Below, one piece after another: positions 31,827 to 48,342 of a stretch of DNA of 64,000 nucleotides. The stretch covers positions 1 through 64,000 of the IMG/VR virus record IMGVR_UViG_3300027007_000012. One strand, given 5' to 3'. Source of the DNA: a virus. Taxonomy: Duplodnaviria; Caudoviricetes. The first letter of the stretch is position 1, and every line of letters starts with the position of its first letter. Made by a program: the position numbers and the translations under genes. The notes below the pieces were generated by a model. The model was not told the DNA's origin and ran no database searches. It saw nothing but the letters and a program-made list of their open reading frames with translations.

Positions 31827-32027
31827 GCTATCTTTTTCGTGCTATCCCAGTCCGACCGCGTGGGTTACCAAAAAACTGCTATCCCAGCCGCTTTCGCGCG
31901 CGGCCCGCCGGCTCACGGACTCACTCGCCGCTCGCTATCAAATCTGTGCTATCCTGCGCCGGGACCGTCGTGCGCTATCAAAAAATCGCTATCCCAGAGC
32001 TGCGTGGGTTATCTTTTTCGCGCTATC
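31827..32027 (+). repeat. Iteron-like array: five pairs of G(C/T)TA(T/C)C hexamers 14 bp apart
   Basis: Pairs start 31827/31841, 31864/31878, 31934/31948, 31974/31988, 32008/32022; A- or T-tract spacers. Confidence 0.85.
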
Positions 32028-32159
32028 CTATGCCTGGTTCGATCTCCAGTCGAAACCGGGGGCCTCGTCGCTGCAACCCGGTGTGAAACCTGTCGTGAAC
32101 TCGTGAAGCGATAACCATGCTACGGGAACGGTTTTACCAGCAGTTTTATCAGTATAACA

Positions 32160-32215
32160 TATATTTATTATCTTACGTGTCCTACATAGATTATGGCACA
32201 AAAAGGCCACCCGAC
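32160..32215 (+). promoter_or_regulatory. Early promoter-hairpin module 1
   Basis: TTTATTA, ATG 32193, hairpin TGGC-ACAAAAAG-GCCA, CCCGAC. Confidence 0.7.
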
Positions 32216-32564
32216 GGGACGCAGCTGGGACGAGCGGGTCCAGGAGCGACTGGAGAACCTCGAGTACGTCGAGCACGTGCACCTGGATTCGGGCGAGCGC
32301 GACTACCTGGCGGGCCAGAGAGATGTCGACCGAGTGACGTGGCTGGTCAGGCTGGATGAGGCGACGATTCAGCAGATCGAGTTCGTCGAGGCGGGAGACA
32401 TCGATGGGAGCGAGACGTTGCGCGGGATTCGCAACGAGTTCGAGCTCGAGATGGGCCTCGCCCCCGGCGACTCGTGGATGGAGTGGGAGGAGATGCAGCG
32501 GGGGACGATCTACGTGACCGGCACGCACGACAACCGTCCGGGAGGGAGCGACGTCTTCCGCTGA
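32193..32564 (+). CDS. Early hypothetical protein
   Basis: 123-aa acidic ORF, leaderless start. Confidence 0.7.
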   Translation: MAQKGHPTGRSWDERVQERLENLEYVEHVHLDSGERDYLAGQRDVDRVTWLVRLDEATIQQIEFVEAGDIDGSETLRGIRNEFELEMGLAPGDSWMEWEEMQRGTIYVTGTHDNRPGGSDVFR

Positions 32565-32580
32565 GCGGCCGGTCGCGGCA

Positions 32581-32624
32581 ACCCGGCATGGTGCGTCGTG
32601 GGGGTTCGAGTCCCCCACCGGGCA
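32581..32624 (+). ncRNA. Miniature tRNA-like element A
   Basis: CCCG/CGGG stem, GCA-TGG-TGC mini arm, GTGGGGG-TTCGAGT-CCCCCAC T-arm; no anticodon arm. Confidence 0.6.
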
Positions 32625-32669
32625 TGGGCCGAGAAAAGTCGGGACTGGCCCACCCGAACGGAGCAACCG

Positions 32670-32975
32670 ATGAGTGTAGACGACGCGCCCGCTGAGGAGC
32701 GGGCACTGATAGAGGAGCACCGCAACGAGATCGCCCGAACCGCCGTCGACGACGCGGTCGAACTGTACGACCTGGTCTCGCGTGTCGGGTTCATCGCCGA
32801 GGACGCCGCCGCCGAGCTCGAGTTCGTCGACGAGGACGAGGGGTCGCTGGCGGATGTCCGTCTGGCCCTGGACATGCTGGACGAGATGGACAACGCACTC
32901 GTGTACATGAACCGACAGAAGCGCCGCGTCGAGGGCCTGTTGGAGGAGCTGGCGCACATCGAGGAGGACCTGTAG
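32670..32975 (+). CDS. Coiled-coil hypothetical protein
   Basis: GGAG RBS, ATG 32670, acidic heptad pattern. Confidence 0.65.
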   Translation: MSVDDAPAEERALIEEHRNEIARTAVDDAVELYDLVSRVGFIAEDAAAELEFVDEDEGSLADVRLALDMLDEMDNALVYMNRQKRRVEGLLEELAHIEEDL

Positions 32976-33148
32976 ATGCCGTCGACATCGATCGAGGTGG
33001 CGGGTGACGTCGTCAAGGCCCGGTACTTCGGCGAGGCGGAGGGTGACTACGCGAAGCTGGTCGTCCACCGCGACCTGTTGGCGAACGAGGATGAGGCAAC
33101 GCGCGTCCTCGACGAGATGCGCGACACGATCGCCCGGGAGGGCCGCTG

Positions 33149-33346
33149 ATGCACGACACGTGCCAGTGCGAGGAGTGCAAGCTGGAGCGCCAGCGCGAGT
33201 ACGAGGCGTCGTACCCCGAGCAGGCGCGCCGGGACAAGCTGGAGTTGGGTGCCGAGGCGACGACCGAGTTCGCCCGAGAGGAGGCACTGCTGCTGAAGAC
33301 TGGGATGACCGAGCGCGATGCGCGGGCCCGGGGGCTGATCGACTGA
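33149..33346 (+). CDS. Small Cys-containing protein
   Basis: CQCEEC; part of a chain of coupled small ORFs from 32976 to 33513. Confidence 0.55.
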   Translation: MHDTCQCEECKLERQREYEASYPEQARRDKLELGAEATTEFAREEALLLKTGMTERDARARGLID

Positions 33347-33509
33347 TGACCGCGATGGATGACCTGCGCGTCGAGCGTCAGCACTCGCGCTACGCGATCG
33401 CGCTGGAGAACGTCGAGGCACTCGCGCACGACGGCCTCGAACAGACCAGCGCGAAGGAGAAAGACGAGATCCTGCGCGAGATCGAGGCGGTCGCGACGGG
33501 GGCGTTCGA

Positions 33510-33938
33510 ATGAGCGAAGTGTCGAAGAAACGCGCAGCTGCGATGTTGGAGTTGCTCGATAAGGACGAGACGATGAGCGAGGGACACGACGACTCGACCG
33601 ACCCGGAGTGTTGGCGGGAGTCGTTCCTGGAGAGCGCGTTCGAGGAGGCGGTGTCGATGGTGACCCAGGCGTCGATGGCCTACGACGAGGAGCACGGAGA
33701 GATGAACGACCAGCCGCACCCGATGGACGTCATCCGTGGGGAGAGCCTGTTGCGCGTCTACGCGACGAGTCGACCGTGGGCGGTCCCGGTCGTGGTGGTC
33801 GAGGTCGCAGAGGCGCCGGCGTACTTCGAGAACGGCATGCTGACCGATGTGCGGGAAGTGTACGCCCGGCGGAAGCCGGGGCTGTCGGCCGACCCGACGC
33901 ACGTGAAGATCCAGATTCGCCAGGGGCGGTCCCGATGA
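33510..33938 (+). CDS. Hypothetical protein
   Basis: 142-aa acidic coupled ORF. Confidence 0.6.
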   Translation: MSEVSKKRAAAMLELLDKDETMSEGHDDSTDPECWRESFLESAFEEAVSMVTQASMAYDEEHGEMNDQPHPMDVIRGESLLRVYATSRPWAVPVVVVEVAEAPAYFENGMLTDVREVYARRKPGLSADPTHVKIQIRQGRSR

Positions 33939-34240
33939 GCGGCGCGACGCGACAACCCTGTGACGTCCGGGATTCGGTGGCCGAGATGTCGACGGAGTCG
34001 CTGCTGTTCCAGACGGCGATGACCGACGCCTACGGGGGTGAGGTTGCCGACCTGATCGACTGGGAGCTGGACAGAGAGATGCGACACGAGCTCGCCTCAC
34101 GCGGGGTCGAATGGTAGTGTACGCGATGGTGACCCTGATCGTCTGGTTGGGTGGCCTGCTCGCGTGCTGGATGGTGTACAGAGCGGCGGTTGGAACGATA
34201 GACCACAGACAGTCATGAACAGAGACATGGAGGACGACAA

Positions 34241-34501
34241 ATGGTGAACTGGGGCGGGCGGTACCCGCCAGGAGCAGCGAACGACCCGGCGGCACCGTAC
34301 AACGAGCCGGAGATGCCCGAGCCCGGGACCGTGATTACGCACGACGTCTCGGAGGCGTACTGCGCGGACTGTGACGAGACGGTCGGGCCAAACAGCCCGG
34401 ACGTCGTCGCGGACATCCTGCTGGACGAGCACCACGGACACCAGGTGGAGGTCGAGTCGTGGACGGAGGAGGAAGTCTGGGGAGGCGACGATGCCCGGTA
34501 G
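34241..34501 (+). CDS. Zinc-binding hypothetical protein
   Basis: CADC ... EHHGH; GGAGG RBS. Confidence 0.6.
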   Translation: MVNWGGRYPPGAANDPAAPYNEPEMPEPGTVITHDVSEAYCADCDETVGPNSPDVVADILLDEHHGHQVEVESWTEEEVWGGDDAR

Positions 34502-34980
34502 TCACGAGCGCCACCTGGACGAGTTCGGTATCTGTCAGTGTGGCCCGTCGCGATCGGGGACGGAGCCGATGGCGCTGGAGTACCAGGATGACATGACCGG
34601 GCGGTGGGTGACCGAGCAGGTGCCGGCCTGCGCCGACTGCTTCGGGCTCTTGTAGCCCGGACGCCCTTTCCGCTTCTGCGCGCCGCCCGCGACGACCCTG
34701 GTTTCCGGTCCAGGCCGAAATAGTAGAGATTCTGATTATATGCAGAACCCGAGAGATGAATACAACTCGCCTCAGCGGCACACACGAGGGTCTCCCGGCG
34801 ACCAGTTTTCTGGGGTCTCACCCCCCACCCTCTCCATGTCGCAAACGACCGTCCACGGGCCGCGTTCGCGGCGTCTACGCACGATTTTCGAAGTTCTCAT
34901 TTTATGCCTTTTGCTCATCGGCGAACCCTGGTTTCTGCTCCGCGAGCCCCGGCACCGCATCCCGGCGCATGTAAGATAAT

Positions 34981-35050
34981 AGAAACATTTAATATCGTAC
35001 CAGACCAAGTATACATTGGACATCGAGAAACCGATGGCCAGCTGGAGTGT
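34981..35050 (+). promoter_or_regulatory. Early promoter-hairpin module 2
   Basis: ATAATAGAAACATTTAATATCGTACC; hairpin TGGACATCG-AGAAAC-CGATGGCCA; CTGGAGTG. Confidence 0.75.
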
Positions 35051-35057
35051 CAAAGAA

Positions 35058-35516
35058 ATGGCGAAAACGACCAACGCGGCCGGCGCACAGCAGACGAGCA
35101 TCGCGAGCGACGCGGACCTCGTCGACCCCACGCAGCACGTGGTGGGGTTTAACGACAAGACGATGAAGCGCGCGAAGTGGGAGGAGTACGACTTCGTGGT
35201 CACGGACACCGGGAACGTGCAGGTCCGGAACGCTTCGTATGGGGACGACGCAGACGCGCACACGTACCACGTGGTGACCGACGCGTCTGGCATCCCGAAG
35301 TGGTGCCTGCACGCACTCGAGGACGACCACGAGGACGACTGGGCGCCATGCCCGGCGATGGCCTACCACGCAGCGAGGAAGAACAAGGAGACGGGCCTCG
35401 ACACCGAGGAGCTGATCGCCAACGGCGAGTACCGTGTCTGCAAGCACGCCCTCGCGTACGCCCGGAACGAAGCGATCGTCCAGGCCGTCCGCCGGGTCAA
35501 GGGAGGCGACAACTGA
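35058..35516 (+). CDS. SWIM zinc-finger protein
   Basis: YHV ... WC ... CPAMAYH ... CKHALA. Confidence 0.7.
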   Translation: MAKTTNAAGAQQTSIASDADLVDPTQHVVGFNDKTMKRAKWEEYDFVVTDTGNVQVRNASYGDDADAHTYHVVTDASGIPKWCLHALEDDHEDDWAPCPAMAYHAARKNKETGLDTEELIANGEYRVCKHALAYARNEAIVQAVRRVKGGDN

Positions 35517-35764
35517 TGAGCACCGTCGAGGTGCTGAACGACCACGGGACGGTCCAGTACCGCGAGCACGACCTCCAGGTCCGGCGCGTCGACGCGGCGT
35601 CGGCGGGCTACGACACCGGGTTCGAGAACGAGTTCGAGCTCCTGGTCGACGACGAGGTCGTCGCGACCGCGACCGAGATCGAGGCCGAGGGGTGGAAGAA
35701 TCCGTGGGCCAAGTCACTGCGCCTGTATGGGAAGGCGTTCGTCGACGGGAGGCTGGACGGATGA
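35516..35764 (+). CDS. Hypothetical protein
   Basis: Coupled acidic ORF. Confidence 0.6.
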   Translation: MSTVEVLNDHGTVQYREHDLQVRRVDAASAGYDTGFENEFELLVDDEVVATATEIEAEGWKNPWAKSLRLYGKAFVDGRLDG

Positions 35765-36093
35765 GCCGTTTCATCCAGGCCATGCGTGCAGAGTTCGGGC
35801 ACGAGGATGCCCGGAGCAACGAGGACTACCGAGCGCCCGTCCGCAAGGTGTACTACGAGGTCGACGGGACGCGACTCCGCGCCACGGTCGTCGGGGCCAC
35901 CGACGAGGAGGCGCGACAGACGTTCGACGAGCTCGCGACCGCTGAGGGACTCGACACCGCGGAGGTCACCGAGATCGTCCCGACCGACGCCCAGATCGCG
36001 GACCTGGACGACCGACTGTACAGTCACGTGCACCGCAAGGCGTCGCGCCGGGACCACGGTGCGCTGAACGCCGCGTTCAACGGGGGCGAGTGA
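35761..36093 (+). CDS. Hypothetical protein
   Basis: Coupled acidic ORF. Confidence 0.6.
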   Translation: MSRFIQAMRAEFGHEDARSNEDYRAPVRKVYYEVDGTRLRATVVGATDEEARQTFDELATAEGLDTAEVTEIVPTDAQIADLDDRLYSHVHRKASRRDHGALNAAFNGGE

Positions 36094-36476
36094 TGCGGGC
36101 GCGATCGCGGCGCTGGATGGTCGTCACGGACCCGGACACGGACTGCGAGTCGCCGGTGTTTCGCCGCATCCCGTCGAAGTTGGAGGCGCACAAGCTCGCA
36201 CAGTTGACGGTGCGCGCCTACGACGATGGGACCAGCGCCGGCGTTGTGGAGGACCTCGGAAAATGACGGGGGACGTTCGCCGACGAGAGCACGTCTACGG
36301 GAGGGGGCGGCTCGTCGTCTACGAGGGGAACCCGAACACGTCGACAGCGTTCGTGGCCGGGAAGCCGGTCCCGAACGAACCCTGACAGTTTCTGTTTTTG
36401 CGCGCCGCCCGCGTCGTCGATTCACCCAGACCGCACTGGATGCCACCAGCAGCGGCTCTCGCCCCACATATGACAG

Positions 36477-36556
36477 ATAATAGAAACATTTAATATCGTA
36501 CCTGTCATAGTATAGTATAGGTTACTGAGGGAAACCTCGGTGCCCACCTGGAGTGA
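36477..36556 (+). promoter_or_regulatory. Early promoter-hairpin module 3
   Basis: Same 26-nt promoter as module 2; hairpin ACTGAGG-GAAA-CCTCGGT; CTGGAGTG. Confidence 0.75.
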
Positions 36557-36560
36557 AAGA

Positions 36561-38225
36561 ATGACGACCAGCGACAGCAGTGGCAAGACGGAGTACAGCA
36601 CGGGACAGATCGGCGTCGACGAGGAGCGTATCATCGACGAACTGATCTTCAGCCAGGCGGAGGGCATCGTCGACGGCATCCGCGAACTCGCCCAGAACGG
36701 GATCGATGCACCGAACTCGACGACAGTCGAGATCGATGTCGACCACGAGCAGACGATCGTGATCGACGACGGCCAGGGGATGGACCTCAGCGACGAGGAG
36801 ATTCGAGAGTTCCTGACGAACCTGGGACAGTCGACGAAGATAGACGACGAGGACACGATCGGCCAGTTCGGCATCGGCTTCGGCCAGGCACTCGCCGTGG
36901 GCAAAGTGACTGTCCACAGCCAGGACTCGAAGGTCGAGTTCGACGCCAAGAACTGGTTCCGCGACTACCGCCTGTACGAGGCCGAGGAGACGTTCGATGG
37001 GACGAAAGTCACGATCGAGCACTACGAGGACGAGGTGCCGGCCGAGGGGTCGAGTGAGTGGTCGGACCACCTCGCGGACCTGCGCACCCGGTTCCAGTAC
37101 ATGGAGCTCGTGAAAGGCGTCGAGGTCTGGCTGAACGGCGAGCGCGTCTCGAACTACGACCCGGCGGATGACCTGGAGAACGCCACGGTCTACGACTCGG
37201 AGCTGGCGTACATGGTCCTGAAGCACGAGAGTTACGACTGGCTCGAAGTGTACTCGGCGGGGCTGAAGGTCACGGACGTCAAGGGACACGGCCTTCGCGG
37301 GTACGTGATCACCAAGCGCAACCTGGAACTGAACACCGCCCGGAACAGTATTCGCTCCGGGTGCGAGGTGTGGCCGGAGGTCGAGAAGGAGATCGCCGAT
37401 GCACGTGCCGAGATCCTCGCGGACGTCTCGGATTCGAACCTGTCGAACCCAGGCCGGGCCGCGATCATCCGCCTCGTGCGTGAGGGCCACGACGAGTTCA
37501 AGGACCGAGAGGTGCTGAAGATGGCCAACGGCGAGATGACGACGTTCGAACAGGTCGAGAAGCGGGATAGCATCATGTTCGCCGGCCAGACGGACAAGGC
37601 GGCGGGGAAGCTGGCCGACCTGGGCAAGATGGTTCTGATGCAGGGCGACAGCGCCGTCTCGCAACTCCGTGAGGGGGCGAAGCGGGGACAGCTGACGCTC
37701 CCGGAGACGAAGAACATCCAGGCGACGGCGGCCGCGCTCGGCATCAAGAACGGCTACGAGATCCTCGAGTTGGACGAGTTCCCGAGCAAGCCCCTGGCAC
37801 TCGCCCGCATCCTGCGGATCAAGATGGCGGCGTACAGCCCGTACGACCTGGACCGGGAGATCATCCCGGGAGAGGACAAGACGGCGCGGGCGTGGACGAA
37901 GCCCCGCCCGGACACGCTGAACGGCGACGAGCGCGCGGCCATCGCCGACTCAGAGTTCGACTCGTTCGTCGCGATCACCGAGACCGCCTACACGTCGTGG
38001 GCGAGTGAGATACTCGTCCTGGAGCTCTGGCGCATCATCGCGCACGAGTTCGCCCACACGGAAGACTCGACGGGAGAGCCGTCCCACGGGTCTGGCTTCG
38101 CTCGCCGCTTCCGCAAGATCCTGGACGCGACCCAGCCAGCGGCCGTGGAACTGCTCGAGGAGATTCGGTCTGACGGCCTCGGGGCAACGTTCGAGCGATA
38201 CGACCACGGGGTCCCGGACGTCTAA
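36561..38225 (+). CDS. GHKL (HSP90/MORC/rIIA-like) ATPase with a C-terminal HExxH zincin-like domain
   Basis: ELAQNGIDA, DDGQGMD, IGQFGIGF, GTKV; C-terminal IAHEFAH ... HGSGF. Confidence 0.8.
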   Translation: MTTSDSSGKTEYSTGQIGVDEERIIDELIFSQAEGIVDGIRELAQNGIDAPNSTTVEIDVDHEQTIVIDDGQGMDLSDEEIREFLTNLGQSTKIDDEDTIGQFGIGFGQALAVGKVTVHSQDSKVEFDAKNWFRDYRLYEAEETFDGTKVTIEHYEDEVPAEGSSEWSDHLADLRTRFQYMELVKGVEVWLNGERVSNYDPADDLENATVYDSELAYMVLKHESYDWLEVYSAGLKVTDVKGHGLRGYVITKRNLELNTARNSIRSGCEVWPEVEKEIADARAEILADVSDSNLSNPGRAAIIRLVREGHDEFKDREVLKMANGEMTTFEQVEKRDSIMFAGQTDKAAGKLADLGKMVLMQGDSAVSQLREGAKRGQLTLPETKNIQATAAALGIKNGYEILELDEFPSKPLALARILRIKMAAYSPYDLDREIIPGEDKTARAWTKPRPDTLNGDERAAIADSEFDSFVAITETAYTSWASEILVLELWRIIAHEFAHTEDSTGEPSHGSGFARRFRKILDATQPAAVELLEEIRSDGLGATFERYDHGVPDV

Positions 38226-38250
38226 GCGGCCGGTCGCGGCAACCCGGAAC

Positions 38251-38297
38251 GGCGTCGGTTTTGGCGTGATGCTGCGGATCGAATCCGCTCGACGTCC
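38251..38297 (+). ncRNA. Miniature tRNA-like element B
   Basis: GGCGTCG/CGACGTC stem, TGG-containing linker, GCGG-ATCGAAT-CCGC T-arm. Confidence 0.5.
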
Positions 38298-38570
38298 TGG
38301 CGGCCTCCGCTACTGTCAAGTGGAGTGACCGCCTACTCCCGCCTGGATGGGTCGGTTCCGTCTGTGGTAGGCGGCTCGGCCCGTCCCACTCCAGGTGGCC
38401 ACGGCGTTCGCGATCGGGCTGGCTCCCTCGGGAGTTAAGTGGTCGCGGCCGCGGGCACCGAGCCCGTGTCACCTTTCGTACTGCTTCCCTGATACCCCGT
38501 ATGTACGTACGTACGCGCCCATACGTACAGACGCGCATTCTCACCTTCCTTACCTGTCAGAGTTCAGTAA

Positions 38571-38635
38571 CACTTATTATCGTACCCTGAGTAGGTCTAT
38601 ATGGACTTCGAGAAACCCGAAGGCCAGCTGGAGTG
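38571..38635 (+). promoter_or_regulatory. Early promoter-operator-hairpin module 4
   Basis: TTATTAT, GTACCCTGAGTAG, hairpin TGGACTTCG-AGAAACC-CGAAGGCCA, CTGGAGTG. Confidence 0.75.
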
Positions 38636-38638
38636 AAC

Positions 38639-38950
38639 ATGACAGATACAGCACGCCTTGTTGTCAACGGTTATGTAGAGCCACAAGAACGATCGGTCCG
38701 GATCGTGTCGATCCTGGGGAGTCTGGCGAACGTGCCGGACGGCCACCGCTTCGAGTACCGCGGGATGGAGCTCGAAAAGCGCGTCACCACTGCACGAGCG
38801 CGGCGCGAACCCGAGCTCGCCGTGTACGACCCCGATGGCGAGTTCGTCGACCAGTTCCAGCCTCTGGAGCTCTCGTCGTACGGGATCGTGGAGATGCTCG
38901 ATACCATGCGCGCCCACTGGGTCGAGACGAAGCGAGCGACCTCTCTGTGA
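38639..38950 (+). CDS. Hypothetical protein
   Basis: ATG after the GGAGTG RBS. Confidence 0.6.
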   Translation: MTDTARLVVNGYVEPQERSVRIVSILGSLANVPDGHRFEYRGMELEKRVTTARARREPELAVYDPDGEFVDQFQPLELSSYGIVEMLDTMRAHWVETKRATSL

Positions 38951-39082
38951 TCGAGGTCGTGATCGCGGTCGCGGTCATGGTCGCTGGCCTGGCATTGTTC
39001 TACGCCATGGTCGCGTACTTCGACTTGTGACCGAAAACTGGTATTTACCGGGTGGGCCCTACCGTGACATGGAGTACCAGAG

Positions 39083-39400
39083 ATGCCCCGATTGATCGAG
39101 CGCATGGGTTGCGTTGCCGACCGACTGAGTGACGAGTGGGAACTCGACGACATCGTAATCGAGCAGTCGGCGACAGCCACGGCGCTCTATCGCCACGAGT
39201 CCGGGGCGATCGTCATGTGGTCGGCCGACCCGGGGCATCGCGTTCAGCTGTGGGAGCCAGACGGCGCGATGGAGACCTGGTTGGACGACGACGTGGTCGA
39301 CCTGGATTGCGCGGCCGAGACGGTCCAGACGTGCATCGAGATGGTCGAATACGAGACCAGCACATCGATGCCACCAGCAACGTCGGCGCCACGTCCGTAA
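39083..39400 (+). CDS. Hypothetical protein
   Basis: After a GAAAACTGGTATTTA promoter; C-terminus carries the motif copy at 39368. Confidence 0.55.
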   Translation: MPRLIERMGCVADRLSDEWELDDIVIEQSATATALYRHESGAIVMWSADPGHRVQLWEPDGAMETWLDDDVVDLDCAAETVQTCIEMVEYETSTSMPPATSAPRP

Positions 39401-39499
39401 CCGTTTTTCCGCGCCGCCCGCGCCGGTCCTGTCACATCGATTGACCACCTGTACCATGCTACGTTTCTCGATTACCAGCAAACCCCTCAGATATACATA

Positions 39500-39557
39500 C
39501 ATTAATATCTGTACCACGCATAGGTACATATAGGTCAAAAAACTGGCCTATCCGAAC
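39500..39557 (+). promoter_or_regulatory. Early promoter-hairpin module 5 (no ATG in stem)
   Basis: ATTAATAT, hairpin ATAGGTCA-AAAAAC-TGGCCTAT, CCGAAC; first ORF starts at 39572. Confidence 0.7.
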
Positions 39558-39904
39558 GGAGACTGAGAAAGATGAGATACAGAGTCTACGGCACACGCAG
39601 TGGCACCGATTTCCAGGCACCCGTCTACGCGCGGACCGCGTCTGACGCGATCGACCTGTTCCTCGACTCCGTGGGCGACCACGCGGCCGAGTACGACAAC
39701 GTCCGAGCCGAGGTCTGGGGTTGACGATGGAGAAGCTGTCGAATGTGGTCCGCATCGAAGACCACGAAGTGGTCGTCAACCGACTGTACCTGGCCACGCT
39801 GGTCGACGACGTCCAGTACCGACTGAGCGCCCTGGGAGACGAAGACGTCGGTGACTACGAGGGAGAGTTGCACGAGGCGCTGTTCCACGCCCAGGAGGCG
39901 CTCG

Positions 39905-40270
39905 ATGACTGACGACGACGACCGACTCCCGCCGGACGCGGTCCCGGACCCGTCGGTTTGGATGCCCCCGGACGTGGTGGTCAGCAAGGAGACCGCCGAG
40001 GTCGCGCTGCGCGAGCTCGACATCCTGATTGAGCACACGGGCGGCCCGGACACGGCGGTCGAGGACTGCTGCTCGCCGCTGGCGCTCGCGTACGACCGGG
40101 TCGAGAGACTGGAGGGCGAGGGGATCGACCCGTTCACCGTGGGGACGGTCCTGCAAGTGTTGGTCGGTGTCGGTGAGGAACGAGGCGTCGACCTGTCGGG
40201 GGAGGACCCGTTACAGGACGACGTGTTCCAGGCGAGGAGCGAGTTCAGGGACGCACTCGGCGTCGAGTAG
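39905..40270 (+). CDS. Hypothetical protein
   Basis: Acidic coupled ORF. Confidence 0.6.
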   Translation: MTDDDDRLPPDAVPDPSVWMPPDVVVSKETAEVALRELDILIEHTGGPDTAVEDCCSPLALAYDRVERLEGEGIDPFTVGTVLQVLVGVGEERGVDLSGEDPLQDDVFQARSEFRDALGVE

Positions 40271-40287
40271 TCGCCCCTCGCGGTTTT

Positions 40288-40337
40288 GCATCGCTGCTGG
40301 TGGCATTCCGAGCTCGGTTCGATTCCGAGGCGATGTG
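40288..40337 (+). ncRNA. Miniature tRNA-like element C
   Basis: GCATCGC/GCGATGT 7-bp stem, TGC-TGGTG-GCA mini arm, CTCGG-TTCGATT-CCGAG T-arm. Confidence 0.65.
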
Positions 40338-40644
40338 TGGCTCCCTGGCCGGAGACGATACGTTGATAGGCTGGTGGAGCCTATGTCTGCACGACATCCC
40401 ATAGTGGATGTCGTTCCGTTCGGGTGGGATAGCACGCGTCGGGCTGTCTCGGCAAGGGCAACCACGCAAGTCGAGATCAGAGGCTCGTGCATACCCGTTG
40501 TCCGGGGCTTTGTCCCCGGACGCCCTTTGTGACCCTGAGCGCCAGCTCTCAGTTTTCGCGTATCCTGTCAGTATCCTGCGGGGCCGGTCGCGCTAACCCG
40601 GTACCCATGCTACGGTCCACAACTATCAACAATATTAGTTGTCA

Positions 40645-40705
40645 TAAATATTATTATATCCCTACCCTGAGTAGTATAGAATATGGGAAAATCAAAATCC
40701 CACTC
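40645..40705 (+). promoter_or_regulatory. Early promoter-operator-hairpin module 6
   Basis: TTATAT, CTACCCTGAGTAG 40662-40674, ATG 40683, TGGGA-AAATCAAAA-TCCCA. Confidence 0.8.
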
Positions 40706-40823
40706 GAGCGGTGAGCGCGTGAACAAGCGGCGGTACCGCGGGAGCGAGCAGACCGAGAGCTTCGACCTGCAAGCAGAGCTCGCCAAACTCGGCGGCGACG
40801 AGGAGGACGAGGACGATGAGTGA
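40683..40823 (+). CDS. 46-aa peptide, basic N-terminal half and acidic tail
   Basis: MGKSKSHSSGERVNKRRYRG...DEEDEDDE (not in the ORF track); followed by coupled ORFs 40816-41420. Confidence 0.55.
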   Translation: MGKSKSHSSGERVNKRRYRGSEQTESFDLQAELAKLGGDEEDEDDE

Positions 40824-41416
40824 GCGAGCGTACCGAGAGCCGGCCAAGTTCTCGGCCGACGAGCTGTCAATCGGCGATGAGATCGTGGTCGCCGGCCTCG
40901 TCCACGAGGTCCTGTCCGTGGGCGAGCCCGGGAAGCAGTGCCTGGTCCGCACGGACCGAGGGGCGTTCTCGAAGGACGGTCTGAGCAGTGGCATCGACGA
41001 CGGCTCCGTGGAGGTCCTTGGGGGAGGCGACGATGGGCGCTGACTTCGGTCCTGTCAACGTGCGCTGGGAGGGGCCGAACGGGGACGTCCGCAACCGGGA
41101 GTTCGCACAGCACGGTCTGTCGACCGGGTGGATCGTCGGCTACGATGAGGACGACAATGCCGAGCGGAAGATACCGCGGAACCGGGTCTACGAAGTGGAG
41201 GTGCTCTGAGATGAGCGAGAGGGTCGACGAGATCAAGCGCCGGATCACGGGTGTGGACCTCGTCGAGATCTGGGTGAGTGAGGGCGACCGACTGTTACTC
41301 GGCATCCAGCCCTACGCCGACGCCGACGGGGAGGCTGTCGCGCACTACCTGGAGCGACTGTTCGACGCACGCATCGAGCGGGTCACGTACGACTTCGTCC
41401 TCGCCGAGGTGGCCCG

Positions 41417-42019
41417 ATGAACTTCGACGAGATGAGTCCGGCCGAGATCGACGACCTGTTCCAGGTCGAACCGCAGCACGACCCCGAGTTCCAGATGGAG
41501 CGAATGCGCGAGCAACTGGAGTACGCTGGCTGGGACGCGATCGAGGGGCTCGTCGACCCCGGGGACGAGTACGTCGTCGAGGAGTCGCACCTGCTGACGC
41601 CCGACCCGCTCGACTACACCGACTTCGAGTGGACGCTCGTCTACCGCGAGAAGCACGTCTTCGACGTCATCGACCCGTTCGACAGCACGCGAGGGGTGAT
41701 CCCCGCCAGTCGGGATGGCGAGGACATGATGCAAGCGTTCGGGGAGTTCGCCGAGGCGTTCCACCTCGAGTGCGAGATCGACAAGTTCCACGATGAGCTC
41801 GGAGAGATGGAGCCCGGGGAAGTCGTCCTGCTCCCGAGCGGCAAGCTCCGCATGGACACGAGCGACCGGATCGTCGTCTACAACCCGATGTACGAGCCGG
41901 TCGTGACGACCGACCCGGAGAACGTCACGGTCGAACTGGTCGAGAGTATCATCGACGACTGGCGGGCTGAGATGCGCGAGAAGTACGAGGGGACGCCGAT
42001 GGAAGACCAGTTCGACTGA
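41417..42019 (+). CDS. Hypothetical protein
   Basis: 200-aa strongly acidic ORF. Confidence 0.65.
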   Translation: MNFDEMSPAEIDDLFQVEPQHDPEFQMERMREQLEYAGWDAIEGLVDPGDEYVVEESHLLTPDPLDYTDFEWTLVYREKHVFDVIDPFDSTRGVIPASRDGEDMMQAFGEFAEAFHLECEIDKFHDELGEMEPGEVVLLPSGKLRMDTSDRIVVYNPMYEPVVTTDPENVTVELVESIIDDWRAEMREKYEGTPMEDQFD

Positions 42020-42087
42020 CCGCGCCCGTTTTCGCGCACCGCCCGCGGCGAATGAGTTATCGACATCGAGATAGTATCGAGTAGCAG

Positions 42088-42594
42088 ATGGGATCGCGAC
42101 CGTGGGAGAACCCCGTCACACTCGCCCGGGCCTACGCCAAGCATGGCTCGGCCGAAGGCGTCGCCGACGCGTGGGGGTGTTCCGAACGCACGATCAGGAC
42201 CTGGCTGCACGAGCACGACGAGATCCGCGTCCAGCGCCAGGGTCGCCGGCCCTCGTGGGAAGACGACGACCCGGCGAATCACGTCCTGGAGGACGACGAG
42301 GGCTACGAGATCGTCGAATCGTTCGTCCCGGTCCGCGATGAGTCAGGCGAGCTCGTCACGATCGAGCGCAAGACCGTTCGTATCCACCGTCTCGTCTGCG
42401 TGGCCGAGTGGGGCTTCGACCAGGTGGTCGACCAGGAGGTGCACCACATGGACGGGCACAAGGTGCACAACACGCGGGAGAACCTGATCCCGTTAGACCC
42501 GAAGACGCACGGGTTTATGGACCCGGCGCGGCGCTGGCGGATGCCCTGGGTCGGCGATTACGAACTGGGCGATCCTGGCCCTGCTGGCGACTGA
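42088..42594 (+). CDS. HNH endonuclease with N-terminal HTH (homing endonuclease-like)
   Basis: VRIHRLV ... VHHMDGHKVHNTRENL ... H; HTH AEGVADAWGCSERTIRTWL. Confidence 0.85.
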   Translation: MGSRPWENPVTLARAYAKHGSAEGVADAWGCSERTIRTWLHEHDEIRVQRQGRRPSWEDDDPANHVLEDDEGYEIVESFVPVRDESGELVTIERKTVRIHRLVCVAEWGFDQVVDQEVHHMDGHKVHNTRENLIPLDPKTHGFMDPARRWRMPWVGDYELGDPGPAGD

Positions 42595-42616
42595 CCCGTG
42601 GGCTTTTGCTTTCGAC

Positions 42617-42707
42617 GTATCCCCGCTCGCTTTCTGTCGGCGGGTATCCCTGCTCGTTTTCGGCGGTTGCGTATCCCTGCTCGCTTTCTGACACCGCGTA
42701 TCCCTGC
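42617..42707 (+). repeat. 27-bp tandem repeat, about 3.4 copies
   Basis: GTATCCCTGCTCGCTTTC-like units start at 42617, 42644, 42671, 42698. Confidence 0.85.
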
Positions 42708-42784
42708 GGGCCCCGGCACCGCTTCCCGGTGACCAGACCATGCGATGCTCGGAAACTCACAGCAGTCCAAGCCGCTTCGCGAGT

Positions 42785-42841
42785 CTCTAATACCCTACCC
42801 TGAGTAGCATAGAATGAGGAACAAAAATTCCTCACCCGAAC
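42785..42841 (+). promoter_or_regulatory. Early promoter-operator-hairpin module 7
   Basis: CTACCCTGAGTAG 42795-42807; hairpin TGAGGAA-CAAAAA-TTCCTCA; CCCGAAC. Confidence 0.8.
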
Positions 42842-42845
42842 GACC

Positions 42846-43085
42846 ATGAACGCAATGGAAGACGTAGAAGGACTCCGTTACACCTTCTGCAACGTGTGGC
42901 TGGAATCGAACTCTCAAATCTCGCACATAATGGTGAACAAAGGTGGTGAAGATGTGTGGGAGGAGACGCCAGAGACAATACTCGTCAACAATTCGATATT
43001 CGAAGGCGAGTGCTACTTCCGAGATGTGATGAAGGTGGTGCTCGAACCACGAGAAGACGAGATCAACGTCAAGATCAACCCCTGA
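42846..43085 (+). CDS. Hypothetical protein
   Basis: 79 aa; ATG overlaps the stop of an 11-codon leader ORF starting at 42814. Confidence 0.55.
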   Translation: MNAMEDVEGLRYTFCNVWLESNSQISHIMVNKGGEDVWEETPETILVNNSIFEGECYFRDVMKVVLEPREDEINVKINP

Positions 43086-43204
43086 CGGCAACGAGATGGG
43101 GCTCCCCATGTGAGCTCCCGTTTTTGCGCGACGCCCGCCGCCCACGACTATCCCAGACCATGCGATGATCTTCGATTCCCAGCAGTTCCAGCCGTCTTAC
43201 GCGT

Positions 43205-43259
43205 CTTTATATCACTACCCTGAGTAGTACAGAATGGGAACAAAAATCCCAACCCGAAC
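43205..43259 (+). promoter_or_regulatory. Early promoter-operator-hairpin module 8
   Basis: TTTATA, CTACCCTGAGTAG 43215-43227, TGGGA-ACAAAAA-TCCCA, CCCGAAC. Confidence 0.8.
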
Positions 43260-43451
43260 GATGAGCTACGCAACCCACGTTCAGATTCAGAAGCTGAAGC
43301 GAGCGAGAAACGAGAGTCGCTGGCCCTCGGACGAGAGAGAAGACGACGAGTAGAGCCGACGCCGACTCTTTCCATTTTCGAGCGCCGCCCGGCGTGACCC
43401 ACCGGCGTTCCCGATGTGAACGTTTCCAGACAATATCAGCCGCTAAACGTG

Positions 43452-43506
43452 TCTTTAATACCCTACCAGTGGTAGTATAAGATATGGGACAAAAAATCCC
43501 AACCCA
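43452..43506 (+). promoter_or_regulatory. Early promoter-operator-hairpin module 9
   Basis: TTTAATA, CTACCAGTGGTAG 43463-43475, ATG 43484, TGGGA-CAAAAAA-TCCCA. Confidence 0.8.
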
Positions 43507-43985
43507 GCGGAACTGAGTGTAGAGAGTGTGCGAATAGAGGGAGAGAGTGGAGAAAAGACACTACGAGTGCACAGTGTGCGTATAATAGAGGGAGAGCTCA
43601 TCGTGAGAGCCTACGAAGATTTCCCACTTCACTCTGACATCTGAGTGAGTGGGAGAGCGGTCCACCGTTTTTGCGTGCGGCCCGTCGGCCTCGAACCCTG
43701 ATTTCCGGTCCACGAGATGATTTTGCTTCCTTGCAGCACCTGAGAGGCGAATACAACCCGTCTCAGCGAGGATCTCGAGCGCCTCACGGCGACACGTTTT
43801 CTGAGCTACAACCCCCTCCCTGTGGACGGTGCAAACGACTGTAATCGACTGTCAGCAGCGAGCTCACACGTGCATATTCGAGTGCCTCAGTGTATGTAGA
43901 ATAACGTATACGACGAACCCCTGTTTCTGCTCCACGCGGGCCCGCTCGCAGCATCCCGGCACCGTCTCTCTTGCCGCTTCGCTGA

Positions 43986-44044
43986 TATTTATTACCCTAC
44001 CCTGAGTAGCTATAGATATGGGACAAAAAAATCCCAACCCGAAC
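43986..44044 (+). promoter_or_regulatory. Early promoter-operator-hairpin module 10
   Basis: TTTATTA, CTACCCTGAGTAG 43997-44009, ATG 44018, CCCGAAC. Confidence 0.8.
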
Positions 44045-44395
44045 GACGAGAGCGACGAAATCCTCCCGGCCCTCGACCACCGAGGACTGACGGGACACGG
44101 CAAGAAACGACTCGACGAGAGCGAGCTCGTCACCCCGTACCTCGTGCAGACGCTCCAGGACGCTGACCCGACCATCCTCCGAGCCATCTGTCAGGTGGCC
44201 GATGCAGCAGCGTCGGCACGGTACGCACCGATCCAGAACCAGCTGGCCAAGGACGAGAGTGCCAGCCGAGAGATTCAGCAGGAATACTGGAACCAGCTGG
44301 ACGACGTGAAGGGGCTCTCGCTCCTCTGCACGGAACTCCTGCGAGACCAGAGAGACGGCGTCCCAACCGAGGAGGACCCCCGACTCGGCTTCTGA
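44018..44395 (+). CDS. Early hypothetical protein
   Basis: 125 aa, starts MGQKNPNP. Confidence 0.65.
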   Translation: MGQKNPNPNDESDEILPALDHRGLTGHGKKRLDESELVTPYLVQTLQDADPTILRAICQVADAAASARYAPIQNQLAKDESASREIQQEYWNQLDDVKGLSLLCTELLRDQRDGVPTEEDPRLGF

Positions 44396-44715
44396 ACACG
44401 GGAACCGACCCAGGGCTACCGATTTCGCGCCACGCCCGTCGTGAAAACCACCGCACCGATGCCACCAGCAGCGCCGGCCCCGGCGTGAATCGTGCACATC
44501 GCGACCAGTGTGCCTCGACGAGCGGCGACCAGGTTTCGCGAGTGGAACCCCTACCCCGTAGACGCCGCCAACGAACCTCCGAGAGCTGGGCCAGATCGCC
44601 GTCGTGAAGGGCCGTCGTATCAGGTGTGAATACTTGCGGGCCCCGGCACTGAATCCAGGGACACAGCGGCTATGCGATGCTCTGGAACTACCAGAGTTAT
44701 CAGCCGTTTTACATA

Positions 44716-44773
44716 CCTTAAATACCTCACCCTGAGTAGCTAAGAATATGGGAAAACAAAATCCCATCCGAAC
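44716..44773 (+). promoter_or_regulatory. Early promoter-operator-hairpin module 11
   Basis: TTAAATA, TCACCCTGAGTAG, ATGGGA-AAACAAAA-TCCCAT, CCGAAC. Confidence 0.8.
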
Positions 44774-45026
44774 CGGCGAGCAGTGCGGCAAACACGACGT
44801 CGTGGCCTTCGTGGCCCTCGCTGCGGACCCCTCGTGGGTCGATGCACCGACGAACCCGGTCACGCCGGGTAACGGCACCGAGGACTGGGCCGCCGACATC
44901 GAGGGCGCCGACGGGGGCGTGATCATGAGCGACTGGTCTTCGCTGGCGGGTGCGGGCGCGATCGACCCCCTGTCGGGACGAGAGCTGAGCGATGAGGAGC
45001 TGCGAGAGAGGCTGGGGGTCGAGTGA
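44748..45026 (+). CDS. Early hypothetical protein
   Basis: 92 aa, starts MGKQNPIR. Confidence 0.6.
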   Translation: MGKQNPIRTGEQCGKHDVVAFVALAADPSWVDAPTNPVTPGNGTEDWAADIEGADGGVIMSDWSSLAGAGAIDPLSGRELSDEELRERLGVE

Positions 45027-45399
45027 GATGCTGAGCCCCAACGGCGATACGGCGCGGATCGATGCGCACGAGTGCGAGCTCGAGCCGACCGGCCGCGGAG
45101 AGGGGATGCACGAGGAGTTCGAGTGCCGAGTCTGTGGGACGGTCACGACGCCCGCTGTGGGCGTCCGGCGAGCGAAGCGGCAACGGCTCTGGTGAGGGCC
45201 AGCCCCTCGTTTTCGAGTGCGTGTACGTACGTACGAGCGGGTACGCACAGACGGGTGGTGGGACCATAGCTTCCGCTTCTGCGCGCCGCCCGCGACGGCC
45301 ACCGTCCCCGACAGCCAACGTAGCATCTATGCGCGCTACTCGACAGAGAAACTTAAATTCGGGCTCCTCTGGGCTTCTACGCAAGTTTTACAACCGAAG

Positions 45400-45460
45400 T
45401 CTTTATATCTGATACCTGAGAAGTCTTAGATATGGGACAAAAAATCCCAACCCCCGAACG
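45400..45460 (+). promoter_or_regulatory. Early promoter-hairpin module 12
   Basis: TTTATA, CCTGAGAAG, ATG 45432, TGGGA-CAAAAAA-TCCCA, CCCGAAC. Confidence 0.75.
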
Positions 45461-46495
45461 GAGCGAGAGCGAGACGAGAGCAGCAGAGGAGGGACGATGA
45501 TGCGCCCCGAGTCGCCGATTGAGTGGACTGGCGAGGCCCACCTCGTCACGGTGAGCTGTAGCCGCTGCGGGAGCACGATGAGCGTCGACGAAGATACGGC
45601 GCTCTGGTACGACGAGCAGGGACGCGAGCACGTGTGCGAGGAGTGTGAGTGAGATGCGCCGAGTGCGTACGATGCTGCTGGCCGCGAGAGTCGTCGCTGG
45701 GATCGTCGTGTTCCCGATCGCGCTGACCGCCGCGAGAGCTCGGGCCCGGGTGGTCTGATGAGCTGTCTCGATTGCGGGTCGACGTCGCTGGCGAGCGAAC
45801 GAGTGGACGTGGTCGGGCGCCCCGACGAGCGGGTGACGTACTGCGAGAACTGTGGAGAGGTGCAGTACGTGGATGTGATTCGATGATTACGCTGCTGGTG
45901 GCATTGGTGGTTGCCGGGCTGGGCGTGTGGGCGTTCCTGCTGATCGCGAGGGAGCTGTAGCGATGGACTGGTGCCCGGAGTGCGGGTCGATGGCCCGCGT
46001 CGACGAACGACGGTTGGAGCGCCAGGACGACAGCGCGCTCGCCAAGGAGGTGCTCGACGTCGTCTGCATGCAGTGTGAGTACGAGGGCGAGAAGCGTCGC
46101 ACAGTGCCCGCCGTGTTCGAGCGGCGGCCAGCAGAGACGGGGCGGGGCGTGAGCGAGCGCGAGCCGGGTCACCCGCTCGACCGCTGAGCGCCCCGGTTTC
46201 GCGTTCCGCCCGCGCCGACCCCTGTTTCCGGTCCACGAGCAAATAGAGTTCGCGACGCGTGTGCATACGCTCGTCTCAGCACGATCCCCCAGGGCCTCAC
46301 GGCGACGGGCTCCTCGGGCCATCACCCCTCCCCTGTGGATGTTGCTCACGACTGACTGGGAGCACACGAACGCACGCCTCAGCGCCTCTACGCGCACTTT
46401 CTGTCTGGGGATTTATCATTGGCTTCGACCTTGATTTCCGCTCCACGCGGCCGGACGCGGCAACCCGGCACCAGAAGTATCAGCCGCTTTACATG

Positions 46496-46553
46496 ACTAT
46501 ATACCTGTACCATGAGTAGCTAAGAATATGGGAAAACAAAATCCCACCCGACC
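46496..46553 (+). promoter_or_regulatory. Early promoter-operator-hairpin module 13
   Basis: TATATA, GTACCATGAGTAG, ATG 46528, TGGGA-AAACAAAA-TCCCA, CCCGAC. Confidence 0.8.
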
Positions 46554-46767
46554 GGAACTGGCCGAGAAGCGACGCAAGCTCGTCAGCGAGCTCCCGTTCA
46601 CGAGCCCCGCCGAGAGCGGCAATCGGATCGTCGTGTGCGTGCAGGACCGCAAGCTGTCGAAGTTCGAGCGCGTCGTCGCGGACCTGGACCTGGAGATCGT
46701 CGAGCGAGAAGACGCTGGGCACTCGATGCAGGGCCGACGCCAGCGCATGGTCCTGGAGGCGTCGTAG
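46528..46767 (+). CDS. Early hypothetical protein
   Basis: 79 aa, starts MGKQNPTR. Confidence 0.6.
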   Translation: MGKQNPTRPELAEKRRKLVSELPFTSPAESGNRIVVCVQDRKLSKFERVVADLDLEIVEREDAGHSMQGRRQRMVLEAS

Positions 46768-47207
46768 CATGCGCCGATCGACGCCGGCGGACCTGGAGCA
46801 GCGCCTCGCCGCGATCGAAGCAGAGCTGCGAGCGATGAGTCGCGGAGACGTCGACGCGGGAACGTGCCGGTGGCTGCTGGAGGAGAAGGCCGAGCTCAGA
46901 GACGAGCGCGACCGGCTGCACGAGACGAGTGGGCGGTGGGCCTGATGAGCGACGAGGGATTTCTCCCGCCAGCGCCGACGGGCGGCCACCCAGCAGACGC
47001 CGTCGAGCGAGCGCGAGAGATCGTCCAGGGAGCACCGGCGACAGAAGAAGAAGTGGCGTGGGCGGCGGAGGTCCTCGCAGACGTCGAGTAGGGTCTCCGG
47101 TTTCGCGCCGCGTCCCCGCCGTCCCCGTCAGTTTTCAGGCCGATTTCAGGCCGATTTTCGCAGAAACCCTCGAAATCGAGTGCCTCAGAGCCTCTACGGG
47201 CCAAAGT

Positions 47208-47266
47208 CTTTATATTCGCTTATGTCAAAGATTTAAATGGTATGGCAAAAAACCAAACCACCCGAC
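47208..47266 (+). promoter_or_regulatory. Early promoter-hairpin module 14
   Basis: TTTATA, GGTATGG-CAAAAAA-CCAAACC, CCCGAC; ATG 47242. Confidence 0.65.
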
Positions 47267-47412
47267 GGGAAGCAGAGCAGGAGAACGAGAGCGACTGGTG
47301 GAGCGAGTATCTGCGAGAGCTCGACGAGATCGTTGTGGGAGTGCTCCCAGCCGAGTCAGATGCGGCACGCCGGCTCGCAGCAGACGAGTACCCGACGTGG
47401 AGCCAGCGATGA
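47242..47412 (+). CDS. 56-aa hypothetical protein
   Basis: MAKNQTTRREAEQ... (not in the ORF track); stop overlaps ATG 47409. Confidence 0.55.
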   Translation: MAKNQTTRREAEQENESDWWSEYLRELDEIVVGVLPAESDAARRLAADEYPTWSQR

Positions 47413-47618
47413 GTGACGAGACCGGAGAGGCGTGTGCGAGGGGAGTCGAGAGTGCGAGCAGTGAGCGAGAGCGTGTGCTGGTGAGAGACGTGACCGCCGT
47501 CGCGCAAGACCTGGAGACTATGTCGGACCACGATCACTTGAGAAGCAGCCGCATGCTCGAGAAGACGGCGCGAGAGATCGTCGACGCAGTGCACGTGTAC
47601 GCAGACGACGACGCGTAG
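47409..47618 (+). CDS. Hypothetical protein
   Basis: MSDETGEACARG..., coupled. Confidence 0.5.
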   Translation: MSDETGEACARGVESASSERERVLVRDVTAVAQDLETMSDHDHLRSSRMLEKTAREIVDAVHVYADDDA

Positions 47619-48342
47619 GGAGAGGGGTTGCCGATTTTTTTGGTGCTGTCCGTGAGCGCCGGAAACGCGCGCCGCCCGTCGCCCGTCTTTCGTGTGTGCA
47701 ACCGCATGGCTGGGTGAGAGAGCGAGCAGGAGATGAGCAGGAGCGTGTGCAGTAGAGCCCCCCGCTCGCGGGCCCCACCAAGAGCTGGTGCGCGGCCGGG
47801 ACCCATTTAGACCTACTTTTACCGCGACACTGATTTTCAGGGATGGGACCGAAACGAATCACTATACTATCTCACATCAATCCAGTCTTTGTCTTCAAAC
47901 TCGGTGGCACAGATGTTACACAAATCGATGTCAACTTCTTTCGTTGTCCCGTCCTGGCGGTCAATCTCAAGGTGATGTTCAGATCCAGTCCTATCGTTAC
48001 AAACTGAGCACTCCATTTTTAGAAAGATTACAGGTGAACCGTTTTAGTCGTATTCCCCCTGATCAGTGTCCCACTAAGGTGTTTTCGTGGTGTTGATTCG
48101 ATTTGATCTACTTTTTACGGGCACCCTGTTTTCAAGCAGTCGCCTCTGGTGGCATCCAGTGCGGTGACATGAACCAGGTCCATTGACCCTAATGTACCCT
48201 TATTTCGAAGCATAACGAAAATTATATATCCGTTCCCTGACTATCTCCATATGTCCTCCTTGGAACGGAGTGACGCATTGCATGAAGCGAACGAACGACC
48301 GGCCTGGAGACCCGGTCACGACCCCGAGAAGCACCGCTTCGG

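Follow-up and report, generated by a model that had tools for sequence, protein, structure and literature searches.

Here we describe a repeated promoter and hairpin module in the genome of an uncultured haloarchaeal tailed virus, and consider what the hairpin might do at the start of the messages that it heads. The DNA analysed—"the window"—is the first 64 kb of the 88,656-bp IMG/VR virus record IMGVR_UViG_3300027007_000012, which is classed as linear and ~72% complete. The record encodes nine tRNAs, an ATP-dependent DNA ligase, a family B DNA polymerase (PolB), a UvrD-like helicase, and an intein-containing large terminase. Judged from its genes, the source is a virus without close isolates, because its PolB shares only 33% identity with the PolB of cultured haloferacalesviruses and no phage record matches the window at the DNA level (megablast and blastn against a phage collection, with the array region or a single module as query). 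The ATPase encoded in the array, described below, also gave no match when it was compared with the phage collection by tblastn.

The cassette array

When an nhmmer profile of the modules was run over the whole 88.7-kb record, it matched exactly 14 times, always on the plus strand and within positions 32152–47272; these 14 copies head short gene cassettes. The order within a module is constant: a TATA-like box, 21–23 nt (often TACCCTGAGTAG), (A)TGG, the stem, an A-rich loop, and CCA. On the 3' side of the hairpin stands (A/C)CCCGAMCGG or, in modules 2–4, CTGGAGTG, with a GGAG(T)G motif that resembles a ribosome-binding site and an ATG 4–9 nt further on. All 14 copies fold as a single hairpin at a constant distance from the TATA box. 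A second mini-hairpin in the flank, read as CC-N3–4-GG, would have a stem of only two bases. The cassettes share one plan, repeated 14 times—promoter, 5' hairpin, one to nine small open reading frames (ORFs), and a T-run.

The T-run belongs to a motif with a GC-rich block, exemplified by TTTTGCGCGCCGCCCG at 36396–36411, that closes nearly every cassette; further sites of this type lie on the same strand at 31892, 34674, 39405, 42030, 43122, 43376, 43669, 44423, 45277, and 46197. The 11 plus-strand sites together span 31892–46212, with the GC-rich block after the T-run conserved, and each unit probably uses the motif as its archaeal oligo-T terminator.

Modules of the same kind are found in relatives of the virus. 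A related provirus (G002, 89.6 kb) carries 19 of them, and the 148.9-kb plasmid CP058532.1 of Halorarum halophilum carries at least 14; their ATPases are 79% and 65% identical, respectively, to that of the window. Cassettes 1–6 are syntenic across three replicons, and cassettes 7–14 differ in presence and order. When positions 42815–47618 of the window are compared with 45383–53267 of the provirus and 16606–21520 of locus L144, each genome has unique cassettes; cassettes 7–14 have been gained, lost, or reordered, and the region behaves like a hyperplastic region bounded by repeated modules.

The fourteen hairpins

A preliminary description of this DNA had listed the stems, loops, and flanks of the hairpins, and all of these were found in place. 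Module 1 (32194–32209, on the plus strand like all the others) pairs TGGC with GCCA across an 8-nt A-rich loop; the ATG at 32193 opens a 123-aa ORF, the N-terminus of which is conserved in the provirus orthologue. Modules 2–4 form a long-hairpin class. In module 2 (35016–35041; z = −2.59 against shuffled sequences) TGGACATCG and CGATGGCCA enclose AGAAAC with one A.G mismatch, CTGGAGTG follows, and an ATG comes 17 nt later; orthologues carry the stems CACCGG/CCGGTG and CACCG/CGGTG. Module 3 (36520–36548; z = −2.90) sits upstream of the gene for a 554-aa GHKL ATPase and has the core ACTGAGG/CCTCGGT with a GAAA loop, which is kept on different stems in the provirus, the Halorarum plasmid, and loci L157 and L158. 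Module 4 (38602–38626; z = −2.17) pairs TGGACTTCG with CGAAGGCCA across AGAAACC and is followed by CTGGAGTG and an ATG; its orthologues carry CCTCG/CGAGG, and the A.G mismatch of module 2 is shared and conserved here.

Module 5 (39530–39551; z = −4.25) joins ATAGGTCA to TGGCCTAT across AAAAAC with one U.G pair and leads into CCGAACGGAG; it has no ATG, as previously noted. In module 6 (40684–40702) TGGGA and TCCCA flank a 9-nt loop behind a leaderless ATG at 40683, and the N-terminus of its protein is conserved in three replicons. Module 7 (42815–42834; z = −3.42) has the stem TGAGGAA/TTCCTCA and the loop CAAAAA; the frame of its 5' ATG ends after 11 codons, and the real ORF runs from 42846.

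The TGGGA/TCCCA stem recurs in module 8 (43235–43251, loop ACAAAAA), whose orthologous provirus cassette has TGGGG/CCCCA; in module 9 (43485–43501, loop CAAAAAA), where the 5' ATG frame ends after 10 codons; and in module 10 (44019–44036, 8-nt loop), where a leaderless ATG at 44018 opens a 125-aa ORF. Module 11 (44748–44767) pairs from the first nucleotide, as ATGGGA/TCCCAT across AAACAAAA. TGGGA/TCCCA returns in module 12 (45433–45449, loop CAAAAAA), in which the 5' ATG frame runs for 22 codons, the real ORF begins at 45497, and the orthologue stems are TGGAAT/ATTCCA and TGGAA/TTCCA, and again in module 13 (46529–46546, loop AAACAAAA), with a leaderless ATG at 46528. The hairpin reported for module 14 (47238–47260, ATG at 47237) is present, with its arms better written as TGGTATGG and CCAAACCA around CAAAAAA, with one A.A mismatch. 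As a side observation on cassette 9 (43485–43660), homology to a 53-aa leaderless provirus protein runs in another frame from a GTG at 43528; the gene is frameshifted or re-started, with its hairpin retained.

Covariation of the stems

Single hairpins of this size are weak evidence. At random ATGG sites in the genome, the fixed position holds a perfect stem of 4 bp or more (loop 4–10 nt) in 36% of cases, and one of 5 bp or more in 16%; the short TGGGA-type hairpins reach z-scores of only −0.2 to −1.7, against −2.2 to −4.3 for modules 2–5 and 7. The weight comes from positional constancy and from covariation across relatives. In three large replicons, 46–47 modules each have one hairpin at the same TATA offset, and 46 of them have 31 distinct stems; the stems measure 4–11 bp, and the loops measure 4–9 nt, are 77% A, and contain a single U in 301 loop bases.

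MAFFT alignments placed the 3' arm wrongly, and we therefore used a covariance model with five pairs, built from nine gap-free copies. The model recovers 34 short-hairpin modules, all on the plus strand. In its alignment pairing holds in 95.8% of cells, against 82.7% in shuffles, and 20 cells carry double-sided changes, against 2.9 in shuffles; the observed score was reached by none of 500 shuffles. Stem pair 4 takes the forms GC, AU, and CG, pair 5 takes AU, GC, UA, and UG, and slid registers collapse. The alignment leans towards structure because it is fitted to the model—the raw sequences, however, give the same pattern.

The same changes can be read directly from orthologous modules, in which TGGGA/TCCCA stands against TGGGG/CCCCA or TGGAAT/ATTCCA, CATCG/CGATG against CACCGG/CCGGTG, and CTTCG/CGAAG against CCTCG/CGAGG; in the set with the ATPase leader, ACTGAGG/CCTCGGT is replaced by ACTGGG/CCCGGT, CCTGGG/CTCAGG, or GACTCAG/CTGAGC. 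The earlier proposal that the stem sequences differ while their pairing is kept is thus borne out by both shuffles and orthologues. Rfam 15 holds no covariance model that matches within 32000–47700, even at E-values up to 1, and the only Rfam matches above the gathering threshold are the nine tRNAs at 2.4–4.3 kb. A resemblance to a CRISPR repeat or a tRNA T-arm, judged by eye, was dropped as too short.

These data bear on the simplest alternative, in which duplication of the promoter carried the hairpin along and the hairpin itself is functionless. Seven modules of the virus itself share TGGGA/TCCCA, and such short hairpins are common by chance, as this explanation would have it; but it does not account for 31 distinct stems with pairing kept, for compensatory changes between orthologues, or for the presence of the hairpin in the cultured Halogranum tailed virus 1 (HGTV-1, below) and in lineages whose ATPases are only 49–65% identical. 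We regard a functionless passenger as extremely improbable.

Start codons and the predicted 5' end

The constraint on the module acts on nucleotides and not on a peptide. Because loop length varies, the segments CCA and CCCGAAC are read in all three frames (for example, MGQKNPNPN, MGQKIPTPE, and MGTKIPTRT). Modules 2, 3, and 5 have no ATG within the hairpin; in modules 7, 9, and 12 the 5' ATG frame stops after 10–22 codons and the real gene starts downstream. The preliminary description had argued from module 5 for a structural constraint, and its argument extends to approximately 20 modules in which the working ATG lies 6–65 nt 3' of the hairpin, preceded in the long-hairpin modules by the GGAG motif.

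In many other modules the hairpin holds the start codon. The 5' ATG opens a real ORF in approximately 27 of 33 short-hairpin modules, with the stem starting at the U of the AUG, and in cassettes 1, 6, 8, 10, and 13 the alignment of orthologous proteins begins at the Met that lies within the hairpin; those messages are therefore leaderless, and there the hairpin is certainly part of the mRNA. One reading of this overlap is a protein-free throttle on translation, in which pairing of the UG of the 5'-terminal AUG would limit or time leaderless initiation. The overlap itself speaks for a throttle; however, burial of the AUG, which the preliminary description had offered as one possible function, cannot be the function common to all modules, because the long and several of the short ones keep the hairpin and start translation past it. 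As the sole role of the element we consider a throttle improbable.

The first base of the TATA box lies 28–32 nt before the stem. In the promoters of halovirus HF2, primer extension places the TATA box at −24 to −28 (PMC8707807), and because the spacing here matches and ORFs are conserved from the ATG onwards, we predict that transcripts start at the A of ATGG (±2), with 0–2 unpaired 5' nucleotides. The stem would thus begin at about +2, within ~0–4 nt of the predicted 5' end. The early timing that the preliminary description assigned to these transcripts is putative.

Distribution among viruses and hosts

In addition to the provirus and the plasmid, three short metagenome contigs carry modules, beside ATPases that are 49–65% identical. 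The locus of a more distant ATPase homologue (L145, 45% identity) has no modules, and a metagenome scan with the commonest hairpin variant returned a single contig, the 320-kb parent of the related provirus. Looser searches were set aside: a loose pattern scan of genome contigs gave at least 120 matches, which were chance hits in unrelated bacteria, and most matches in a second, viral pattern scan were also due to chance.

The module is restricted to the virus and absent from the host chromosome. In the complete 4.3-Mb genome of Halorarum halophilum, the model matches only the plasmid array, at 82.3–90.9 kb. Of the ATG starts in 300 kb of the host chromosome that are preceded at −34 to −22 by an AT-rich box, 22% have a stem of 4 bp or more, against a background of 28%. 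Other promoter-like sites within the virus mostly lack the hairpin; a possible exception, outside the array, is the start of the DNA ligase operon (4760–4816, ATG at 4798), which has a GAAACACTTAATA-type promoter and a possible 7-bp hairpin at +2 with two G.U pairs.

A looser form of the hairpin is found in cultured HGTV-1 (NC_021328), which has an array of small ORFs on the minus strand at 132–144 kb. There, approximately 15 of the 18 annotated coding sequences that lie directly behind a TATA box start with ATGG and a +2 hairpin, and internal operon genes have none. The stems are again diverse—TGGC/GCCA, TGGAG/CTCCA, TGGTTG/CAACCA, TGGGT/ACCCA, and TGCCT/AGGCA—with purine-rich loops, and the CCCGAMCGG flank is not conserved. 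The pattern appears only for the promoter-proximal annotated coding-sequence starts of the small-ORF array; across the whole HGTV-1 genome, hairpins are not enriched at ATGG sites with a TATA box (45% against 36%). We found no description of the +2 hairpin in the literature.

HGTV-1 also has a 19-bp palindrome, CTCCTCGTGSCACGAGGAG, at 128–142 kb (locus L152), which is conserved in sequence, has AT-rich boxes on both sides, and recurs many times; five copies are exact and others more degenerate, and they lie ~60–90 nt upstream of hairpin-bearing starts. A "TATA box plus inverted repeat" motif of HGTV-1 has been compared with the promoter-early stem-loop (PeSL) elements of phage T4 (PMC3950731). 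The palindrome is probably this motif, which thus appears to be distinct from the +2 hairpin.

Another possibility is that the inverted repeat in our modules acts as DNA, either as an operator or initiator at the start site or as a homology patch for PeSL-like shuffling of cassettes. HGTV-1 shows that a sequence-conserved palindrome can stand beside TATA boxes, the sequence around the start site is essential for the HF2 repeat promoters (PMC8707807), and the differing presence and order of cassettes 7–14 recall PeSL regions (PMC2839356). A DNA-binding protein, however, would conserve half-site sequence and spacing, and since both vary here while pairing is kept, an operator is unlikely. The stems are also too short for cruciforms, and shuffling, which any repeated module would bring with it, leaves the complementarity unexplained. 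Overall, a role at the DNA level seems a poor prospect.

Module-like hairpins behind tRNA-like minihelices

Three intergenic tRNA-like minihelices, with an acceptor-like stem and a T-arm such as GGGGGTTCGAGTCCCCC, lie at 32566–32625, 40290–40345, and 52105–52190. Neither ARAGORN nor Rfam called these three as tRNAs; copies are conserved in the related provirus. Directly 3' of two of them stand module-like hairpins, at 32626 and ~52190. The first (32626–32662, plus strand) has no promoter and consists of (AT)GGGCCG, a 14-nt loop, and TGGCCC, followed by CCCGAACGGAG and an ATG at 32670; it is conserved in the provirus with an identical CCCGAACGGAG flank. The preliminary description had recognised this extra copy with a CCGA/UCGG stem. 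Its sequence and conservation were confirmed, and the proposed stem gives way to GGGCCG/UGGCCC, a fold that is not significant on its own (z = −0.15; E = 1.9 with the covariance model). A tRNA-processing cut at these predicted sites would create a new 5' end with a 5'-monophosphate.

Function of the hairpin

We favour a reading in which the hairpin works in cis, as a stem-loop at the 5' terminus of the RNA, to protect or mark the end of the message, and we give it a probability of about 0.5. Host RNA polymerase would transcribe each cassette from its own promoter, made of a TATA box and a transcription factor B recognition element, and the first 16–29 nt of the RNA would fold into a stem-loop with 0–2 unpaired 5' bases. 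The element would then act as RNA, in cis, at the 5' terminus. Most likely it would shield the message end from attack that depends on that end, such as 5'-phosphate sensing or exonuclease entry, and it would probably also set how easily the 5'-terminal AUG of leaderless messages is used. An A-rich, U-free loop would stay unpaired in a G+C-rich message and avoid the oligo-U signal for archaeal termination. We favour 5'-end protection because the conserved property is the extreme 5' position and not overlap with a start codon, and because module-like hairpins also follow predicted tRNA-like processing sites.

Several points weigh against this reading. The short stems are weak, at −5 to −6 kcal/mol at 37 °C, and a small-count test for strand-specific RNA pairing favoured neither side, with four G.U against six A.C mismatches. 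Purified aRNase J of Haloferax volcanii also cuts internally, and its complex acts mainly in the 3'-to-5' direction (PMC10470531); a dominant 5'-to-3' decay route in haloarchaea is not firmly established (PMC10470531). In addition, a plain stabiliser has no obvious need of the conserved CCCGAMCGG flank and the uniform loop, which hint at a binding partner.

The hairpin and its CCCGAMCGG flank could accordingly be the site of a viral or host RNA-binding protein that co-regulates the cassettes, either as a translational repressor or activator, in the way of T4 RegA on early messages, or as an antiterminator, in the way of lambda N at boxB. In favour of this, the loops are uniform in composition, and the 3' flank is kept across paralogues, three replicons, and reading frames; the TGGAC...GGCCA stems retain an A.G mismatch or bulged A, the GAAA tetraloop is fixed in the ATPase-leader family, and one element on 14–19 units would permit coordinated control. 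Stems of 4–11 bp and loops of 4–9 nt would nonetheless be unusually variable for a single protein site, and the flank is not conserved in HGTV-1. We see a protein-binding site as possible but doubtful.

Antitermination is the form of this idea that the preliminary description had put forward, by analogy with boxB and nut sites, and of its three suggested functions this fits worst and 5'-end protection fits best. Each cassette has its own promoter and, almost always, its own T-run end, and therefore read-through is not needed for any gene. In a simple scan for an N-like peptide across the array, arginine-rich windows turned up only in spurious out-of-frame ORFs. The cassette proteins offer no obvious partner in terms of known domains: ten were searched against Pfam, and a single weak helix-turn-helix (HTH) match was the only one obtained.

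A further variant of 5'-end recognition, which we hold to be rather unlikely, is a virus-specific 5'-end signature made up of the hairpin, its A-rich loop, and the flank, through which a dedicated viral or host factor favours the stability or translation of viral leaderless messages, or switches the cassettes off together. If this were true, the signature would do for archaea what a cap or an operator does elsewhere, and distant haloarchaeal myoviruses, HGTV-1 among them, would have it in common.

Other genes in the region

The 554-aa protein encoded behind module 3 (P0001, 36561–38225) has a GHKL-type ATPase domain (HATPase_c_3) and a HEFAH motif near its C-terminus, and is conserved at 45–79% identity in proviruses, the Halorarum plasmid, and other mobile elements. 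An identical ATPase is present on four contigs, of which the longest measures 154,791 bp; in some samples, therefore, the virus may be integrated or form part of a larger replicon. A 168-aa ORF (42088–42594) with a weak HTH_23 match follows a terminator-like motif, has no standard module, and may be an inserted mobile gene. Further downstream, the large terminase gene (55732–58491) contains an intein, which has a LAGLIDADG homing-endonuclease domain.

Significance

Little is known about the control of early or accessory genes in archaeal viruses, or about the fate of leaderless messages in haloarchaea. Repeated promoter modules of haloviruses and the 5' stabiliser hairpins of bacteria and phages are already known; what appears to be new is a covarying 5'-terminal hairpin that often holds the leaderless start codon and that is found in a provirus and plasmid lineage and in HGTV-1, but not in host genes. 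The element is short, well defined, and supported by covariation at the predicted 5' end of dozens of viral transcripts, and it occurs in two culturable systems—the Halorarum halophilum plasmid, and HGTV-1 on Halogranum. Its study could bring to light a 5'-end-dependent pathway of decay or recognition in haloarchaea, and the element itself could serve archaeal expression vectors as a portable stabiliser or regulator.

Comparison with known systems

The nut sites of lambda and P22 share with our modules a short G/C stem and a purine- or A-rich loop beside a conserved linear motif in early transcripts. Lambda boxB, however, has a fixed 5-bp stem and a GNRA-like pentaloop, lies well inside the transcript, and stands upstream of terminators that gate promoter-less genes. 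The hairpins described here have variable geometry (4–11 pairs and 4–9-nt loops, with GAAA confined to the ATPase-leader family) and sit at +2, and all 14 cassettes have their own promoter module.

PeSL cassettes of T4-type phages are closer in layout (PMC2839356, PMC4122927): many copies of a promoter and stem-loop flank small orphan genes in a variable region, and cassette content differs between close relatives. The composite motif of our array likewise flanks orphan-gene cassettes in a variable region. The PeSL stem-loop, on the other hand, is a G/C-rich terminator beside the promoter, conserved in sequence (PMC2839356, PMC4122927); here the hairpin sits at +2, on the 3' side of the TATA box, and covaries; no T-run follows it, and the cassette ends in a separate T-run. 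The HGTV-1 palindrome CTCCTCGTGSCACGAGGAG (compare PMC3950731) is also conserved in sequence and lies upstream, in contrast to the covarying hairpin downstream of the TATA box.

The class I and II intergenic repeats of HF2 and other haloferacalesviruses are repeated, position-conserved promoter modules of a haloarchaeal myovirus, as ours are, with the start site inside the repeat and an essential region around it (PMC8707807). They differ in that their sequence is conserved and in that no covarying hairpins are described for them; a 9-bp inverted repeat is present only in IR4.5. In blastn searches of the module and the region against phage records, no sequence similarity to the HF2 alpha, beta, or gamma repeats or to the class II consensus was found.

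The nearest functional parallel may be found in bacteria and their phages, where 5'-terminal stem-loops stabilise the messages of E. coli ompA, T7 gene 10, and B. subtilis aprE and ermC. These hairpins lie a few nucleotides from the 5' end, as is predicted for ours, are defined by structure and not by sequence—as the covariation counts and the 31 stems show for the modules here—and often precede a ribosome-binding site, much as the long hairpins here precede the GGAG motif; in T7 gene 10 the hairpin is, moreover, tied to a repeated phage promoter. What sets the haloarchaeal modules apart is an archaeal host, mostly leaderless messages with the start and first codons inside the hairpin, a uniformly A-rich loop, and, as the putative target of the block, a haloarchaeal nuclease.

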